From: a virus
Virus record (IMG/VR): IMGVR_UViG_3300010167_000004
Coordinates: 1-64,000 of that record
Length of the DNA: 64,000 nucleotides
Reading direction: 5' to 3' (one strand)
Each line of letters begins with the position of its first letter. Position 1 is the stretch's first letter. Positions 16,742-56,175 of the stretch are shown here, piece after piece. Both the position numbers and the translations under genes were made by a program. The notes below the pieces were generated by a model that did not search any database, had not been told where the DNA came from, and was given only the letters and a program-made list of their open reading frames with translations.

Positions 16742-17822
16742 TACGCACCACCTGACTCACACCTTTTGAATGAGGCGTCAATGTCTGATTGATAACTTTC
16801 ATATCTTCATCGCTCACTCCACCAATTTTAGCATTACTCATAAACTTTTTCTTATTTTCTTTAAGCAAAGCTGGCATAGCCTCAAGTGTACGATCTCTTA
16901 CATCTCGTTGAATAACTTTAGTAGGAGAATACTCATCCAAAAATGCCTCTAAATAAGCTTCTAACCTCTCTGGTTCAATACTCCTCAAAGCATCTTCAAC
17001 TAATAATTTTTCCCGTATCTCATTATATACTGAATACTGTGGGCCTCGCCTAAGCAACTCACGTATTTGACTTCTTTTACGTTGCTGTTTAGTTGCCTCA
17101 TCTAACAACTCTACAGGAGCGTCATAAAGGCTCACCGAACTAGGATCTCTATCTTTTACATGAGCCTTCATTTCTTCTCTCTGACTCTCTGGTATATGCG
17201 CTCTCCGCATAATGCTATCTTCAACTTCTTTCTTAGTAACATTTACATTATTATTTTCTGCCCAATCATATACTGCTGCAATAGCCTTCCAATAATTCTC
17301 ATTAGACGAATTACTTAAGCTATGTAATTTCCGCATCATATCCAACTTTTCTTTAGGTACATTTCCTCTATATGTACGCTTAGATCTATCAGATATTTTC
17401 TGTTTTAATCTATCCTGACCTTCAAACGGATCAATAGATTCTTCTTGTGGTTCCATCTCATTAAGATACACATGCCAATCACCAGCAAGACCTTCATCAT
17501 CCGTCCGTTTACCTAATACCTTATGAATCCTAACAGGATAGCGTTTAGTATCCCTACTATTACCCGTAAGATAATCCCATAACTCTGACTGACTTTCAGG
17601 ATCTATCTTCGCAGCAGAAAACCCCGGCTGACTTCCAAAACTACTTGACTCTAAATGAAAATCTCCGGGACGCTCTGCGTCAAACTGCTCTCGCTGACCT
17701 ACCCTAGATATTTGCCGCTCTCGCTCTCTTGTAGATCTAGCTGGAGTAAAGAATGGGATTAGTACTTTCTCACCAGTAGGAGTTTCTTTTACACGAAACC
17801 CTTTGACAAAACTATCCATCAC
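16734..17822 (-). CDS. hypothetical head-module protein
   Basis: 362-aa ORF with SD AAGGAA, charged and helical. It overlaps the next gene by 8 nt. Confidence 0.75.
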   Translation of the reverse strand: MMDSFVKGFRVKETPTGEKVLIPFFTPARSTRERERQISRVGQREQFDAERPGDFHLESSSFGSQPGFSAAKIDPESQSELWDYLTGNSRDTKRYPVRIHKVLGKRTDDEGLAGDWHVYLNEMEPQEESIDPFEGQDRLKQKISDRSKRTYRGNVPKEKLDMMRKLHSLSNSSNENYWKAIAAVYDWAENNNVNVTKKEVEDSIMRRAHIPESQREEMKAHVKDRDPSSVSLYDAPVELLDEATKQQRKRSQIRELLRRGPQYSVYNEIREKLLVEDALRSIEPERLEAYLEAFLDEYSPTKVIQRDVRDRTLEAMPALLKENKKKFMSNAKIGGVSDEDMKVINQTLTPHSKGVSQVVRNG

Positions 17823-18061
17823 ATTTCCTTATGACCATTCTTTAACTTATCAGCCAACAACGGCCCACCACCAGCAATAATACCCTGCGTACCTACGAGA
17901 GCGGTAAGCAATGGTAACGCTTGTAACCATAAGCCTAATCGGACTGTCTCCGCTAAAGGTACAGCAACCATTGTATATCCAATAATTGCCGCAACCTCTA
18001 TCACCCATGCTATCTGTAATAAGCGTAAAGAAAATGCTTTTTTCTTCTTCACCTCATCCAT
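17819..18061 (-). CDS. small membrane protein (2-3 TM segments)
   Basis: 80 aa with hydrophobic runs LLQIAWVIEVAAIIGYTMVAV and LWLQALPLLTALVGTQGIIAGG. SD GAAGGA. Confidence 0.7.
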   Translation of the reverse strand: MDEVKKKKAFSLRLLQIAWVIEVAAIIGYTMVAVPLAETVRLGLWLQALPLLTALVGTQGIIAGGGPLLADKLKNGHKEM

Positions 18062-18681
18062 TACTTCAAATCCTTCAACAGCACATTACCTTTAACCAAA
18101 AAACCAACACCAAACGCCCACAATGCAATAGCCTCACCAAAATAAATACACGGTGAAAAACCAAAGATCCTAGCACCGCCGAAACCAGCAATCAATCCCG
18201 CAATCATCGTAATACCACATACCTTATATATTTTATTACGCAATGCCTTACGTGACCCCTTCTCAATGTCTTTCGCCGACTTCGTAAACTGAAACAACAT
18301 CATCCAACTAATACCCGCAAAAAACATAATCGCACCAGTCAGATGCAACACATTAGTAATATACATTGGTAACTGCAAAAAGTTATGCACGGTTGAACCA
18401 TAACTCACTGGAAACAAGGAAAGCACGAGGCCACCAACGCCAGCGATTTTAGATATACGGGCATCCGTCAAATCATATCCCTGATAGAATATCAGGAACA
18501 CGCTTGCCGCACCCATCAACATCATAAATATCGCCACTGAATTCATGTAGTACGTTGCGGAAATTGACGGCAGAAAAAATCCATGCCCTCCAAATACCCC
18601 GGCACTAATCCAGATAGCAATAGGCAGTATTGCACCCATAATGCCAATAAACTGACGCTGGCGTAACATATCCTTATCCAT
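18061..18681 (-). CDS. polytopic membrane protein (~6 TM segments)
   Basis: 206 aa with six hydrophobic stretches. SD AGGGGT. Confidence 0.75.
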   Translation of the reverse strand: MDKDMLRQRQFIGIMGAILPIAIWISAGVFGGHGFFLPSISATYYMNSVAIFMMLMGAASVFLIFYQGYDLTDARISKIAGVGGLVLSLFPVSYGSTVHNFLQLPMYITNVLHLTGAIMFFAGISWMMLFQFTKSAKDIEKGSRKALRNKIYKVCGITMIAGLIAGFGGARIFGFSPCIYFGEAIALWAFGVGFLVKGNVLLKDLK

Positions 18682-37015: not shown

Positions 37016-37551
37016 TCATAGCAATAGACTTCGATGGTACTTGTGTCACGCATGATTACCCTAATGTCGGTAAGGACATCGGTGCTGTACCAGTATTGAA
37101 ATGGTTAGTGAATGAAGGGCATCAGCTAATACTTTGGACGATGAGAAGTAAAGGTCAGTTACATGACGCTGTAGGATGGTTTGCTAAAAATGAAATCCCA
37201 CTGTACGGATGCAATAAAAATCCTAATCAGTCATGGTCAGATTCTCCAAAAGCATACGCTGAATTGTATATAGATGATGCGGCATTAGGCTGCCCTCTTA
37301 TGCTTGAACCGAATATATCACCGAGGCCATTTGTAGATTGGAAACGAGTAGAGTATAGACTTAAACAAATCTTTGCAGGACAATTAAAAATCGGACATAC
37401 TGCATTAGTACTGGGAGGAACTAATGAATCAGATCATGATGCTGATAATGACCATTGCGCTAGAGGTGGGGATTCCCCCACAATTTGCACTTGCCATAGC
37501 ACTAACGGAGAATCACACATTAAACCCAAATGCTGTCAGCAAGCCGAATAG
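37012..37551 (+). CDS. HAD-superfamily phosphatase-like protein
   Basis: IAIDFDGTCVTH gives the DxDxT motif I. SD AAGGAG. The 3' 128 nt overlap the next gene. Confidence 0.65.
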   Translation: MIIAIDFDGTCVTHDYPNVGKDIGAVPVLKWLVNEGHQLILWTMRSKGQLHDAVGWFAKNEIPLYGCNKNPNQSWSDSPKAYAELYIDDAALGCPLMLEPNISPRPFVDWKRVEYRLKQIFAGQLKIGHTALVLGGTNESDHDADNDHCARGGDSPTICTCHSTNGESHIKPKCCQQAE

Positions 37552-37837
37552 AAATGGTACGATAGATTTAGGTATCATGCAGTTAAACAGTGCTAATTTC
37601 GGGCATATAAATTGGCGTGATCCTGCAACAAATATCCGGGCAGGGTGTGAGCATATTAAAATGTTAATAAATAGGCCGGAGACAACTACCTATTGGAGTG
37701 TGGCTATAGCCTATAATGCCGGGATAAATCGGATACGGAATCCTCCAGCCTCTACATTAAGGTATGCGGATGCCGTAATAAAAAAGTTTAATGAGTTAAC
37801 ATATGGTGGCGTAGCACCTATACTATTAAGGAAGTGA
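37424..37837 (+). CDS. lytic transglycosylase (SLT domain)
   Basis: ALTENH (catalytic Glu), GIMQLNS and AYNAG. SD GGGAGGA. Confidence 0.75.
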   Translation: MNQIMMLIMTIALEVGIPPQFALAIALTENHTLNPNAVSKPNRNGTIDLGIMQLNSANFGHINWRDPATNIRAGCEHIKMLINRPETTTYWSVAIAYNAGINRIRNPPASTLRYADAVIKKFNELTYGGVAPILLRK

Positions 37838-47706: not shown

Positions 47707-47985
47707 ATGATGTTACTTCGATGTCCCATTTGCAAAAAGGTTCTAGGCCCGGTTCTAGCGGCTGACGATACAGCAATTCACATACCGCAGAATAATGCGT
47801 ATGTTCAAAAATACATTTGCTCTGGCTGTATGAAACCATTGATTATTAAAGTAGAGGTAAACGATGGACAAAGACAAACTAACCCCTATACAGGGTATTC
47901 TTTCCAAAGGGGATCTCCAATGGGAGGCGGGAGCGGGGGGAACGGATGGTGGCATGGAGGCGGTGGGGGCGGTGGTAGAGGGTAA
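47707..47985 (+). CDS. zinc-ribbon protein with a Gly-rich tail
   Basis: CPICKK...CSGC, then GGGSGGNGWWHGGGGGGGRG. Confidence 0.5.
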   Translation: MMLLRCPICKKVLGPVLAADDTAIHIPQNNAYVQKYICSGCMKPLIIKVEVNDGQRQTNPYTGYSFQRGSPMGGGSGGNGWWHGGGGGGGRG

Positions 47986-48274
47986 GAAGTTTGATCAGGG
48001 TAAACTCCAATGGCATACCATAAACCCACTTATGGAACAAATAGAACAAGTAGTCAAAATACTAGAGGATGGTGTTAAGACGTACGGTCTGAACAACTGG
48101 ATGAATGTTACACCATTTGAAGAACGATATAGCAATGCCCTGATGCGGCATGTCACCGCATACATGAAGGGTGAGATTACAGATCCTAACAGTTGCCGTC
48201 ATCATCTAGCTCATGCTATATGTAATTGTTTGTTTCTAATGCACGGAGGAAATAACAATGCCGAAACAGAATAA
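47864..48274 (+). CDS. MazZ-like dATP/dGTP diphosphohydrolase-domain protein (start uncertain; alternative ATG at 47954)
   Basis: KKFDQGKLQW...GVKTYGLNNW...ALMRHVTAY...DPNSCRHHLAHAICNCLFL matches my recollection of the K.D.GK...KYG..NW...RH...HLAH pattern. Confidence 0.6.
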   Translation: MDKDKLTPIQGILSKGDLQWEAGAGGTDGGMEAVGAVVEGKKFDQGKLQWHTINPLMEQIEQVVKILEDGVKTYGLNNWMNVTPFEERYSNALMRHVTAYMKGEITDPNSCRHHLAHAICNCLFLMHGGNNNAETE

Positions 48275-52948: not shown

Positions 52949-53111
52949 AGCGGTTATGACTCAATGGGTTAAAGATGGTCAACCTGATGACTTTGATAAT
53001 CGTGATATGTACGAGTGCTTATTAGGTATAGATGACGCAAAAAATACCCTCCCCGCTATGGGGGAGGGTTCATCACATCTGCGGAGTAACGAAACAGATG
53101 GGATTAACTAA
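52914..53111 (+). CDS. hypothetical protein, last plus-strand gene
   Basis: 65 aa. Its 3' part runs through the minus-strand terminator hairpin and overlaps the convergent gene by 8 nt. Confidence 0.45.
   Translation: MMERENLKALAKAVMTQWVKDGQPDDFDNRDMYECLLGIDDAKNTLPAMGEGSSHLRSNETDGIN
53038..53069 (-). terminator. intrinsic terminator of the late (minus) operon
   Basis: On the minus strand, ACCCTCCCC-loop-GGGGAGGGT (9-bp GC stem at 53046-53069) is followed by ATTTTTTG. It lies 35 nt after the last minus-strand stop. Confidence 0.75.
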
Positions 53112-53508
53112 ACAAACGGTAGCTGTCTACCGAATACAACGCCGCCGCAGGGCGGTTAGGATTCATTGAATCCCACCTCTCACCATCTTCTTCTAAGACG
53201 AAATGCCCATGCCCCGGACGTTTAATATAAACTACGCATATACCTTCTTTCGGCATCTCCCCTGATTTACATACTGATCTGAATACATTCCGTCCAATAC
53301 AATGATTAAGTATCGCAACAGGATTGATAATGAAGCAATCTTCCTCTATCCATCCCTTCGATAAACAATAATCAAAGATTGGTATTATTTCACGATCCAT
53401 CACAGGCTCATCGGTAATACGCTCTGACCATTCAAGCAAGCAGAAAAAATAACACCCGTATTCTTGCAGCATAGAATCTGGAAAATCATCTTGAATACCT
53501 TGCCTCAT
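53104..53508 (-). CDS. papain-fold (C39-like) cysteine-peptidase-like protein; candidate endolysin
   Basis: 134 aa with EYGCYFFCLLEW (candidate Cys) and RPGHGHFVLEE (candidate His). SD GTGAGG. It is the last gene of the late operon, next to membrane proteins. Confidence 0.4.
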   Translation of the reverse strand: MRQGIQDDFPDSMLQEYGCYFFCLLEWSERITDEPVMDREIIPIFDYCLSKGWIEEDCFIINPVAILNHCIGRNVFRSVCKSGEMPKEGICVVYIKRPGHGHFVLEEDGERWDSMNPNRPAAALYSVDSYRLFS

Positions 53509-53520
53509 ATTATTACCTCA

Positions 53521-53976
53521 CTATAAAAGTGTATGTACCCATTTCGGACATAGATTAAAGATCCATTTTGTCTTAGGGATGACGCCTAATATCAACATTA
53601 TTATCTTCAATGATGTCCACACGATCAAGATAGTCCACAATGTATTCTGGATTTTCTGTGAGCGTGCTAATTGTATCTCTAAGTTGATCAATTTCGTTGA
53701 GTAATCCGTTAGCAAATTCAACGAGTCTGTGAATTGTTGTTCCAAGATCGTGAACTGTTCCCGTGATGACTTCCAATTCACTTCCAAATCTTGATTGGAT
53801 TCTTTCAAGATCGCTATTGATTTGTTCAATTCGTCCAACTGCAATGTAGCCTGTTCTGCTAACATTGACAATATCTGACGCTGATCCGACTGTTCCTGTT
53901 GTGGTGCAGCTTGTGATACAAGCAATAACAAGCACAATAATACCGCACACAAAAGCCATGATTTTTTTAGACACAT
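53521..53976 (-). CDS. signal/TM + coiled-coil + C-terminal TM protein (spanin-like), frame A
   Basis: CAGGAGGAGGACA sits immediately upstream of the ATG at 53976 (MCLKKSWLLCAVLLCLLLLVSQAAP...). The C-terminus is LWTILIVWTSLKIIMLILGVI. Confidence 0.55.
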   Translation of the reverse strand: MCLKKSWLLCAVLLCLLLLVSQAAPQQEQSDQRQILSMLAEQATLQLDELNKSIAILKESNQDLEVNWKSSREQFTILEQQFTDSLNLLTDYSTKLINLEIQLARSQKIQNTLWTILIVWTSLKIIMLILGVIPKTKWIFNLCPKWVHTLL

Positions 53977-54001
53977 TGTCCTCCTCCTGACTGGTTGACA
54001 T
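53573..54001 (-). CDS. alternative-frame ORF encoding a lipoprotein-like product, frame B (embedded in frame A)
   Basis: SKKIMAFVCGIIVLVIACITSC is a lipoprotein-type signal with lipobox ITSC, followed by a D/E-rich helical region. No SD at 54001. Confidence 0.35.
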   Translation of the reverse strand: MSTSQEEDNVSKKIMAFVCGIIVLVIACITSCTTTGTVGSASDIVNVSRTGYIAVGRIEQINSDLERIQSRFGSELEVITGTVHDLGTTIHRLVEFANGLLNEIDQLRDTISTLTENPEYIVDYLDRVDIIEDNNVDIRRHP

Positions 54002-54017
54002 TTATATACAGAATGAT

Positions 54018-55040
54018 TTACCACCATTCAATACGCACATATCCATTACCTCCATATCCGCCATGTCCACCTATACCACCTCTACCTCCACCACCACCGC
54101 CACCACCGCCTCCTGCACCTCTATATCCATCTGTACCATTACTACCATCTATTTGAAAAGGCCAACCCATTTGCGCCCTTAGCCCACAACGTCCACCATT
54201 CCCCGGTATACCAAATACACCAAATGCATCATTAAACTTTGCACTACACGAGCCACCACCTCCACCACCTCCACCACTACCACGTGCGTCTGATACACCA
54301 CTATCTATATATACTTGTCCACCTCCACCAGCTTGCCCTCCCATTGTTGTTAGACCAATAGAAAATCCGTTCTCACCATCCCCACCAATATAATTTGACC
54401 CACCAGAAGTAGAATACTTACCCCCGCCACCACTATTACCACCACGCCCCGCAGACGAGTATTCACCATCACCACCACCCGCACCACCATAAGATCCGCC
54501 AGAAGGATTCGTGCTGCCACCATTACCGCCATTACCACCCGGTTCTCCACCAAATAAAAAAGTAAGATAAGGATAACCAGTTTGATAACTTAGATATGTA
54601 GGATCACCGGGATAAGAATATAAGTTATCAAATCTACCCCCTGCGCCAACTTTAATAAATATAGTTTGATTTGGGATGACATCTAATATAGTATCAACAT
54701 ACCCACCGCCACCACCTCCAGCACCTCCAGATCCACCTGTGGTATCTCCCCCAGTGCCACCCCCTGTACCACCACGTCCACCAGCGCCGCCGCCAGCAGA
54801 TGCCACAACTCTAATTTTGGTTACATTTGATGGAACGATCCATTCATAACTATCGGGTACAACCCATTCTAGTTTATGTAATGGGAATATCGACTTTGCT
54901 TTATTATCTACACCTACATATGCTTTTACAACAGTCTTTGCTTTATCATGGACATTTGCATATATACGGGAAATCTTTTTAGATAAGTTAACATCATTGC
55001 CAGTTAAAATAGACACATCGCTATCCTTATATCGGTACAC
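54018..55040 (-). CDS. glycine-rich-domain tail protein, paralog of 55027-56175
   Basis: GTG start. The N-terminal SRIYANVHDKAK..YVGVDNKAK is shared with its paralog. WIVPSNVTKIRVVASAGGGAGGRGG is followed by long Gly runs. Confidence 0.8.
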   Translation of the reverse strand: MYRYKDSDVSILTGNDVNLSKKISRIYANVHDKAKTVVKAYVGVDNKAKSIFPLHKLEWVVPDSYEWIVPSNVTKIRVVASAGGGAGGRGGTGGGTGGDTTGGSGGAGGGGGGYVDTILDVIPNQTIFIKVGAGGRFDNLYSYPGDPTYLSYQTGYPYLTFLFGGEPGGNGGNGGSTNPSGGSYGGAGGGDGEYSSAGRGGNSGGGGKYSTSGGSNYIGGDGENGFSIGLTTMGGQAGGGGQVYIDSGVSDARGSGGGGGGGGSCSAKFNDAFGVFGIPGNGGRCGLRAQMGWPFQIDGSNGTDGYRGAGGGGGGGGGGRGGIGGHGGYGGNGYVRIEWW

Positions 55041-56175
55041 CTATCCATTCAAATATGATCACACCATCAGCCCCATCACCACCATTAGATCCTGTATTCG
55101 TTCCAGAAGCACTACGTCCACCTGAACCACCAGCACCACCGCCCCCCGCTCCCCAACACTCCTTATCTGCTGGAAACCCCGGTGACATTTGCGCACCATG
55201 ACTAGGGCCAGCGTCAGTACCCCTATTACCATCACCAGCTCTTGGAAAATCGGCTATCACTAAACTACGATCTTTATTACCCCATTTGTTAATATCATAA
55301 AACCAACGCAGAATAGTGACAGGACTCATCCCTCCACCACCCCCGCCTCCACCACTACCCCTATTACCTCCGTAATCATACCCGCACATTCCACCTTTAC
55401 CTACAACAAGACCATCACTTGCTAGTATATGCTCATTTAATGGATCGAGATAATACTCCCCGTTATCTCCATATAGCTGCAGGGCTGGATTTAGATTAAA
55501 CGCATTATTATAGATGAAATTATTACGTCTTGGCCCACCATGCCCACCTAATAATGAACCACCTGTACTAGAGTCTACACTTGGTAAATTTGGTATAAAA
55601 CTACTTCCACCTTCTATCCTATTAGGTGCAGCCCAATTACTATTCACATTAACGAGGCCGGGATTACCACCGCCGCCACCATCAAGAGCAAGGATAAGGA
55701 TTTCATCATACATTGGCCCATTCTGTTGGATTAAATCAATGGACGTATATCCACCATTTGATCCACCTGTTCCATTACCAGATCCTCCCGGATGAACGCC
55801 GCCTCTACCACCAAATCCAACTCTCATTGAGAGTTGCTGCCCCGGCTCAAAATGATATAACTTTCTAAATACCCATGAGCCAGAACTGCCACCAGCACCG
55901 CCTCCACCACCATAGTATGAGCTGCCTTCACCACCGCCAGATCCACCACCCCCTCCTCCACCTATAGCAGTAATCCATATATTAGAAATACCCAAAGGTA
56001 CTGTCCAATAATGATTACCAATATCAAACATAACGCTATTAAGAGGAGCTATTCTTTTTGCTTTATTATCTACACCAACGTACACATTAGATATTCGTTT
56101 AGCTTTATCGTGAATGTTTGCATATATACGAGAAACATGTTTTGTGAAATTGTCCTCGCCAATTAAAATAGGCAT
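55027..56175 (-). CDS. glycine-rich-domain tail protein, paralog of 54018-55040
   Basis: 382 aa with WTVPLGISNIWITAIGGGGGGGSGGG and multiple Gly runs. Confidence 0.8.
   Translation of the reverse strand: MPILIGEDNFTKHVSRIYANIHDKAKRISNVYVGVDNKAKRIAPLNSVMFDIGNHYWTVPLGISNIWITAIGGGGGGGSGGGEGSSYYGGGGGAGGSSGSWVFRKLYHFEPGQQLSMRVGFGGRGGVHPGGSGNGTGGSNGGYTSIDLIQQNGPMYDEILILALDGGGGGNPGLVNVNSNWAAPNRIEGGSSFIPNLPSVDSSTGGSLLGGHGGPRRNNFIYNNAFNLNPALQLYGDNGEYYLDPLNEHILASDGLVVGKGGMCGYDYGGNRGSGGGGGGGGMSPVTILRWFYDINKWGNKDRSLVIADFPRAGDGNRGTDAGPSHGAQMSPGFPADKECWGAGGGGAGGSGGRSASGTNTGSNGGDGADGVIIFEWIGVPI

Follow-up and report, generated by a model that had tools for sequence, protein, structure and literature searches.

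The window analysed in this work is a stretch of 64,000 nucleotides (nt) of viral DNA (positions 1-64,000 of the IMG/VR record IMGVR_UViG_3300010167_000004), and on its minus strand it contains two genes, called here A and B, that are read from the same bases in different frames. Both frames are carried by a stretch of 456 bases (53521-53976); frame B lies entirely within frame A, in the -1 frame of A (i.e., A is the +1 frame of B), and covers 0.00-0.88 of the length of A. An earlier reading of the letters, referred to below as the original prediction, had described two almost completely overlapping frames encoding envelope proteins, and both open reading frames (ORFs) are present as it described them. 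The pair is considered here first as a case of dual coding and then as a candidate spanin; the limits of the two genes, their signals and their neighbours are collected in Table 1.

Translation of both genes would start behind a single Shine-Dalgarno sequence, AGGAGGAGG, which is separated from the ATG of frame A by the spacer 'aca'; both start codons are located 3-5 nt past this ribosome-binding site. The start of frame A at ATG 53976, directly past the ribosome-binding site, was confirmed by reading the sequence, and the longer listed ORF of this frame (53521-54027) is an extension to an earlier ATG (54027) without a ribosome-binding site. Frame B had been given as 54001-53573, and its open span and its stop were borne out; nevertheless, the ATG at 54001 did not hold as its start, since the ribosome-binding site falls within the nine additional codons, the gene P0001, called independently on a Logan contig, starts at GTG 53974, and the N-termini of the family align there. 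The true start of frame B is therefore almost certainly the GTG at 53974-53972, which would give a protein of 133 residues. An assembly indel was also checked as the cause of this arrangement and is excluded, because the Logan contig is identical to the window DNA over 12.4 kb, without differences, and the two-frame layout is found in 13 further loci.

Relatives of the pair were sought with a phmmer/HMMER scan of B and A concatenated against 1.84 billion representative proteins. The matches formed two disjoint sets: the B half alone was matched by ten proteins, all of which have a lipobox (E-values 2e-21 to 6e-4), and the A half alone by five, P0011, P0013, P0014, P0016 and P0020 (E-values 2e-20 to 5e-5). 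A fast word-index homology search with either frame returned nothing apart from the window's own protein. The DNA encoding the matched proteins was recovered, and other loci were reached through the neighbouring DUF261 gene and through a metagenome scan; scanning with the A alignment yielded one locus, and so did scanning with the DUF261 alignment. Viral-contig scans with a single DUF261 protein and with a distant B subfamily gave no match, nor did a tblastn search of phage genomes with one A-family member, and the window has no DNA similarity to cultured phages. All the related loci are metagenomic contigs, many of them short, and several of the samples they come from appear to be from termite guts. 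The family proper comprises 12 loci, i.e., the window, L008, L009, L010, L012, L014, L015, L017, L018, L020, L021 and L022; with two loci of an analogous pair whose homology to the family is unproven (L002 and L007), the number of readable loci is 14. In each relative just one frame is annotated by the gene callers (that of B for the window, that of A at several of the other loci), which leaves half of the system out of the protein databases.

Both frames are open in all 14 loci, at guanine plus cytosine (GC) contents of 0.28-0.53; in L009 frame A is open and runs off the contig end, and one more contig, L016, carries at its end just the C-terminal part of an A-like ORF. In every one of the 14 loci the two starts are 2-5 nt apart, with one strong ribosome-binding site 3-11 nt upstream. 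The ATGTG motif of the window is also present in L012, L014, L021 and L002, and the A proteins of this class all start with MC or MW; the variants in the other loci are RTGAATG, ATGTATG, ATGAAATG and GTGTCATG, and in L017 frame A starts with GTG instead of ATG. The conserved N-terminus of B in the family is MN[EDV]K, and the best explanation that we find for the odd MN[EDV] is that ATGAATG has to contain the ATG of A. The analogous pair also has twin starts (1442-2179 / 1444-1893 in L002, 1302-end / 1306-end in L007), is also present in L003 and L004, and lies directly downstream of DUF261. Its A-like protein of 245 residues has a signal peptide and a coiled coil, with two hydrophobic segments at the C-terminus, and its B-like protein of 149 residues has an N-terminal membrane segment and no lipobox cysteine. 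When L002 is compared with L007, the two frames are conserved to the same degree (39% and 38% identity, E-value 4e-19 each). Profile-profile comparison of this pair with the main family using hhalign gave probabilities of 16-67%, and homology is not claimed.

The chance that two frames remain open over this length was evaluated by recoding one protein with synonymous codons and asking how often the other frame stays open. For the window, B remained open given protein A in 0.0002 of the GC-weighted synonymous recodings and in 0.011 of the permutations of synonymous codons within the gene, and A remained open given protein B in 0/5000 and in 0.021, respectively. Taken alone, the openness of the two frames in the window suggests more than chance, but is not conclusive. 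Across the loci, GC-weighted recoding gave values <=0.003 in both directions. Under the strictest null, which was the within-gene permutation, P was 0-0.044 per locus for B given A, and 0-0.10 for A given B, except for L022 (0.52); the summed log10 P was about -35 for B and -32 for A, with floors applied and with some of the loci closely related.

The lipobox of B provides a second line of evidence. The codon of its cysteine, TGY, is invariant in the 12 family loci. In frame A its T is the last base of one codon, and its other two bases begin the codon that follows; the residues of A at this place vary (QAA, QDA, QDV, IPA, AGV), which indicates that these bases are fixed by the need of B and not by that of A. 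A third line comes from a profile test, in which a profile of B built from other clades was used to score the real B and 300 versions obtained by permuting synonymous codons with the A protein fixed. In 12/12 loci <=1/300 of the permutations matched the real score, and the mirror test for A gave the same outcome. In a stricter form of this test the real residue was substituted wherever the permutation created a stop, and the signal peptide and the lipobox were excluded; the mature domain of B was then significant at <=1/200 in seven of the 12 loci and marginal in three. In addition, the part of A that extends 34-121 nt past the stop of B changes as an ordinary single gene does, with position 2 conserved and position 3 free: the differences at codon positions 1/2/3 were 0.43/0.19/0.59 and the amino-acid identity 54%, and in the DUF261 gene, taken as the control for substitution pattern, the differences were 0.37/0.30/0.64.

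Other measurements weigh against two coding frames, or leave the matter as it was. In the overlap the differences are flattened (a1 0.51, a2 0.47, a3 0.61), and these counts by themselves are compatible with a weak constraint on A only. In the stricter profile test the mature domain of B of the window itself was not significant (30/200), and neither was that of L009. The comparison of synonymous-site conservation that the original prediction had proposed was run for frame A, and showed only a slight rise within the overlap (0.48 versus 0.42 outside). Pairwise amino-acid identity was 37% for A, 27% for B and 21% for the third frame, which contains stops; another estimate placed B and A at 26-32%, and the measure is not decisive alone. 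The frames could not be told apart by codon usage, with a model trained on the long genes of the window (12,855 codons; log-likelihood -534 for A and -538 for B), and base composition by codon position in the window favours B. It should also be considered that composition acts on more than one frame at once, T-rich DNA encoding hydrophobic peptides and A/G-rich DNA polar helical ones; this property, the similar codon-usage likelihoods and the weakly A-like substitution counts are what could be said for a single real gene accompanied by a shadow ORF that composition keeps open. Conservation of one frame only was looked for among the relatives, and what was found is that both frames are open and that both proteins are conserved beyond the demand of the other frame, as expected from overlapping genes. 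The mature domain of B is truly under selection, though less tightly so than the C-terminal anchor of A. From all these results we are highly confident that A and B are both real, conserved genes and that the locus is dual coding.

The characteristics of protein A agree with the signal-like N-terminus, long coiled coil and C-terminal transmembrane segment expected from the original prediction. Its N-terminus, MCLKK, is followed by a hydrophobic core of about 13-17 residues with a signal-peptidase-like end, VSQA/AP, and residues 1-23 are signal-like. AlphaFold2 predicts one continuous helix for residues 27-132, with a mean predicted local distance difference test (pLDDT) score of 78 (83-91 in the centre), and this helix enters a second hydrophobic segment, at residues about 115-133 (nt about 53578-53634; Kyte-Doolittle value of 2.4), which is a strongly conserved anchor and is followed by an 18-residue tail. 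In the helix, the occupancy of heptad positions a and d by hydrophobic residues is 0.70, versus 0.12 elsewhere (shuffle p = 0.03). The members of the A family share this organisation, i.e., a hydrophobic N-terminus ending in LLFVSQD, a polar helical middle, the conserved C-terminal hydrophobic segment and a INKIIPWWLDVII-like tail.

For protein B, a lipoprotein signal with the lipobox ITSC and an acidic helical domain had been foreseen, and both are recognised in its sequence pattern, its charge and its AlphaFold2 model. The n-region MSKK and a hydrophobic core precede the lipobox, at residues 20-23, with Cys23 as the residue that could be acylated; a linker of eight Thr/Gly/Ser residues comes next. 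The model contains helices at residues 32-107 and 109-122 (mean pLDDT 74). Mature B would have 111 residues, a net charge of -10, 1.8% proline and no hydrophobic or transmembrane segment, and its helical domain is conserved up to the region of its own stop. As judged by pattern, the lipobox cysteine is invariant, with [GS] at position -1, in the 12 family loci and in the ten database homologues; the latter have glycine before the cysteine and the window has serine. Residue +2 is threonine in the window and is never aspartate across the family. By these pattern-based features, i.e., an N-terminal signal with a lipobox cysteine and no further membrane segment, B resembles the outer-membrane lipoprotein subunits of spanins (o-spanins).

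Both signal peptides are encoded by the same bases, in which T-rich codons specify hydrophobic residues in both frames. In the soluble domains of A and B, the heptad a and d positions are occupied by Leu, Ile, Val, Met or Phe at 0.7-0.9, versus 0.04-0.16 elsewhere, and the periodicity had a shuffle p <=0.05 in 18 of the 20 domains examined.

The position of the pair in the window, between the tail genes and a putative peptidase at the end of the late operon, was confirmed by the PF21722 genes upstream and the DUF261 gene downstream. The latter starts 12 nt after the stop of A and is the last gene of the minus-strand operon. DUF261 is presumably a spirochaete-associated family. In seven homologues Cys19, His100 and His102 are invariant; their alignment contains an invariant Gly-Cys-Tyr near the N-terminus and a later P-x-H-x-H-F-V-L, a papain-like arrangement of Cys and His. 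The sequence suggests a peptidoglycan peptidase or amidase, and a DUF261 profile found no relative among solved structures, while a literature search on the family yielded nothing informative. In the relatives the pair is also tightly packed, on the same strand, beside a gene for a cell-wall enzyme whose family changes by lineage (Table 1): CHAP, Peptidase_C39_2 and Peptidase_M15_4 genes are directly upstream of the pair. In L010, L018 and L020 the order is a small holin-like protein with several transmembrane segments, the enzyme and the pair, and small multi-transmembrane proteins also precede the enzyme in L002 and L007. The replacement of the enzyme around a constant pair is typical of lysis cassettes, where spanin genes are expected.

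Table 1. Features of the two-frame locus of the window and genes found next to the pair in the window and in related loci
Feature	Position	Strand	Remarks
Shine-Dalgarno sequence AGGAGGAGG	53980..53988	-	read in the sequence; common to both start codons
Twin start codons ATGTG	53972..53976	-	ATG 53976-53974 for frame A; GTG 53974-53972 for frame B
Frame A gene, 151 amino acids	53521..53976	-	stop 53523-53521; proposed inner-membrane (type I) spanin subunit
Frame B gene, 133 amino acids	53573..53974	-	stop 53575-53573; proposed outer-membrane lipoprotein (o-spanin-like) subunit
3' part of frame A past the stop of B, tail KTKWIFNLCPKWVHTLL	53521..53572	-	single-frame coding
Frame B lipobox ITSC	53906..53917	-	Cys23 codon TGC 53908-53906; VSQAA in frame A over the same bases
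DUF261 gene, 134 amino acids, putative cysteine-peptidase endolysin	53104..53508	-	PF03196, E-value 8e-11
Glycine-rich tail-fibre-like gene	54018..55040	-	weak PF21722 match; upstream neighbour of the pair
Paralogous glycine-rich gene	55027-56175	-	PF21722 above the Pfam threshold
DUF261 neighbour	window, L016; L002/L007 in opposite order		
CHAP neighbour	L010; L012/L013		Pfam in L010; motif only in L012/L013
Peptidase_C39_2 neighbour	L008, L018		
Peptidase_M15_4 neighbour	L009, L020		
Class 3 lipase neighbour	L015:3-563		PF01764, GYSLGAS motif; endolysin position directly upstream of the pair

Several other genes of these contigs deserve mention. The two PF21722 paralogues, which are the final tail-fibre-like genes ahead of the lysis locus, have long GGxGG runs, and their opposite strand contains long proline-rich shadow ORFs. 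The lipase of L015 could be a lysis enzyme that targets lipids or the envelope, and in L020 (1-1464) the signature of a diversity-generating retroelement (bAvd and an RVT_1 reverse transcriptase) is located just upstream of the cassette formed by the holin, the M15 endolysin and the pair. In the window, two minus-strand genes of the structural block, at 17819-18061 (80 residues) and 18061-18681 (206 residues), have several predicted membrane segments each; no other obvious holin-like candidates are present in the window, and these two are unrelated to the holin-like genes of the relatives. A second peptidoglycan-cleaving enzyme, an SLT lytic transglycosylase of 137 residues with a hydrophobic N-terminus (37424-37837, plus strand; PF01464, E-value 1e-15), is encoded a long way from the lysis locus, in the early/middle block; it could be an enzyme of the signal-anchor-release type or an injection enzyme. 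Beside the DNA polymerase A gene, a protein of 136 residues (47864-48274, plus strand) matches the N-terminal domain of a dATP/dGTP diphosphohydrolase (PF18909, E-value 4e-24), which hints at nucleotide-pool editing or modified DNA bases.

From the gene context and the topology of the two proteins, spanin function of the pair appears moderately probable. The full proposal, to which we give a similar, measured preference, is that A and B form a two-component spanin with a type I inner-membrane subunit, in which the two genes are embedded with coincident starts and share their initiation region. According to this model, a ribosome at the single ribosome-binding site would pick either the ATG or the GTG, and this choice would set the A:B ratio without separate regulation. 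Both proteins would be exported by Sec. B would be acylated at Cys23 and sorted to the outer membrane, probably to its inner leaflet; the signal peptide of A would probably be removed after VSQA, and its C-terminal segment would hold it in the inner membrane as a type I protein (N-out, C-in). The helices of A and B, of about 90 residues and about 13 nm each, could then associate across the periplasm through the peptidoglycan mesh, and once the endolysin clears the mesh, the complex would rearrange and the outer membrane would be ruptured or fused. Since the anchors are at the N-terminus of B and at the C-terminus of A, an antiparallel association would draw the membranes together; a parallel, in-register association would instead form a strut. 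Signal cleavage, lipidation, sorting, the interaction of A with B, the disruption of the outer membrane and the two-membrane host are steps that we infer.

A number of observations count against the spanin proposal. No Pfam, PHROG or NCBIfam model matches the A or the B family, and neither protein has similarity to any known spanin family, so that the assignment of function is derived from topology and position alone; both proteins are known here from their sequences and predicted structures. A lysine is found inside the C-terminal segment of A, together with an arginine in most relatives. No holin can be recognised beside the pair in the window, where the holin-like genes of the relatives also have no homologue. 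An integrase adjoins the pair in L010 and L021, and this is also a typical place for lysogenic-conversion genes. As for the host, the point made in the original prediction, that a spanin would imply a diderm, is logical, and a diderm envelope is what the model predicts. Scans of two genome collections, with the A family and with the DUF261 family, gave no match; the matches of the DNA polymerase of the window are <=30% identical and come from phages of many different hosts, and therefore offer no clue.

Several of these observations can be accommodated if A and B are real and co-expressed but form an envelope module of another kind, e.g., a regulator of lysis timing, a holin/antiholin-like pair, or a system for superinfection exclusion or lysogenic conversion. 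We regard this explanation as unlikely, though still deserving serious attention. It would account for the dissimilarity to known spanins, for the location beside the integrase, a common position for accessory genes, for the missing holin next to the pair in the window together with the two hydrophobic segments that A carries, and for L015, where the upstream neighbour is a class 3 lipase and not a peptidoglycan hydrolase. For the holin variant in particular, no holin is known to have a periplasmic coiled coil of 90 residues between two transmembrane segments. Against a non-spanin module in general, the pair is packed against endolysin-type genes of four unrelated families in independent lineages, and three loci keep the order holin-like gene, endolysin, pair. 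Moreover, a lipoprotein and a membrane-anchored coiled-coil protein encoded by overlapped genes are a hallmark of spanins (PMC6139136).

The original prediction had also raised the possibility of a unimolecular spanin produced by a frameshift from B to A. In this case a programmed +1 shift would yield the functional product, and the full-length separate A would be minor or absent. The relation of the frames is the appropriate one, the fusion would have the topology of T1 gp11, i.e., a lipoprotein signal together with a transmembrane domain at the C-terminus (PMC6139136), and the N-terminal hydrophobic segment of A could be a by-product of the T-rich signal codons of B. Nevertheless, in 14/14 loci A has its own start (ATG; GTG in L017) <=5 nt from that of B and at a good distance from the same ribosome-binding site, so a frameshift is not needed; in addition, the N-terminus MN[EDV] of B is best explained by the embedding of the ATG of A, and the helical domain of B is conserved to its own stop region. 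Lipobox codons aside, no nucleotide motif with the conservation needed for a shift site stood out in the alignments, in which no dedicated slippery-site search was made. We consider this mechanism very improbable. Finally, the shadow-ORF explanation introduced above can practically be discarded, given that A and B have separate families of homologues, that all 14 loci (one of them at 28% GC) are open in both frames with a chance for B of <=0.04 per locus under the strictest null, and that the invariant lipobox cysteine, the conserved twin starts, the positive profile tests in both frames and the coding signature of the A-only tail all oppose it.

If the two-component spanin proposal is correct, A would be the first candidate for the type I i-spanin that was proposed in 2018 and never found. 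Entire classes would then escape the current searches for spanins, which demand an N-terminal transmembrane domain, and this may account for some of the 'spanin-less' phages. A bolder version, which we hold as doubtful, is that the pair represents the first spanin class built on a type I inner-membrane subunit, with co-encoded coiled coils, a ratio fixed by competition between the twin starts and an antiparallel, SNARE-like zippering that would draw the two membranes together; within it, residue i of A and residue i of B would come from the same triplet shifted by one base, and the partners of the coiled coil could be forced to co-evolve. Independently of its function, the locus is an unusually clean natural case of nearly complete dual coding, in which a protein of 133 residues is encoded wholly inside one of 151, is conserved from 28 to 53% GC, and shares with it the bases of signal peptides, coiled coils and start codons. 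It should be useful for studying the co-evolution of two structured proteins on one sequence, and how one ribosome-binding site splits initiation between frames.

Comparison with the spanins already described shows which features of the pair are shared and which are not. Of the readings offered by the original prediction, an embedded spanin of the Rz/Rz1 type with a long overlap is the best supported; its gene architecture stood, and an Rz-like type II A and a short proline-rich B did not. As in lambda, the lipoprotein is encoded entirely within the gene of a periplasmic coiled-coil protein with a membrane anchor, in a different frame of the same strand and by the endolysin gene; the overlap corresponds to the embedded architecture of two-component spanin genes, with an atypical span. 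The usual span of an embedded o-spanin is from 0.4-0.5 to 0.9-1.0 of the i-spanin length (PMC6139136), with a ribosome-binding site of its own, whereas B starts 2 nt after A (0.0) and shares the site of A. The -1 frame relation is already known, with 116 cases of o-spanins in this frame, and is not new here; some o-spanins are also partly helical (PMC6139136). Mature Rz1 has about 40 residues and is proline-rich and unstructured, in contrast with the long, helical and proline-poor mature B, and Rz and Rz1 have no sequence similarity to A or B.

The main difference concerns the inner-membrane partner. By the definition of Kongari et al. 2018 (PMC6139136), i-spanins are type II proteins whose transmembrane domain is N-terminal, as is that of Rz, and a survey of lytic proteins published in 2025 keeps the same spanin classes (PMC12596118). 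A has the helical, coiled-coil periplasmic domain expected from an i-spanin, as seen in its AlphaFold2 model and heptads, and lacks the type II topology. Given that its N-terminal core is short and has a signal-peptidase-like end, and that its conserved anchor is C-terminal, A departs from the canonical i-spanin, but could act in the same way. It was already considered that an inner-membrane protein of type I, with its transmembrane domain at the C-terminus, could serve as i-spanin, although it fell outside the search criteria (Kongari et al. 2018, PMC6139136). A, with a predicted N-out, C-in topology, a C-terminal transmembrane domain and a lipoprotein partner, resembles that hypothetical protein. 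The earlier proposal was a speculation without an example, and here there is a candidate family with a putative function of this kind. A and B also resemble the unimolecular spanin gp11 of T1 split into two chains. The difference is that the two anchors belong to separate polypeptides with separate starts, the lipobox to B, whose end has no hydrophobic segment, and the C-terminal transmembrane segment to A; furthermore, the periplasmic domain of gp11 is rich in beta strands (PMC6139136), and those of A and B are predicted helical coiled coils.

The start region has a parallel in another lysis gene. The holin gene S of lambda (S107/S105) has two starts a few nt apart in one initiation region, and produces two lysis proteins in a fixed ratio. 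The twin starts of A and B are similarly close and share one initiation region; in S, however, the starts are in the same frame and the proteins nearly identical, whereas those of A and B are in different frames and give unrelated sequences. What is new in the pair described here is the coincidence of the starts with a shared ribosome-binding site, the overlap of the signal sequences, a lipoprotein that is long and helical and, most importantly, the anchoring of the inner-membrane partner by its C-terminus. Because one defining feature of the canonical i-spanin fails, the pair does not belong to any known spanin family; it probably works like a spanin.

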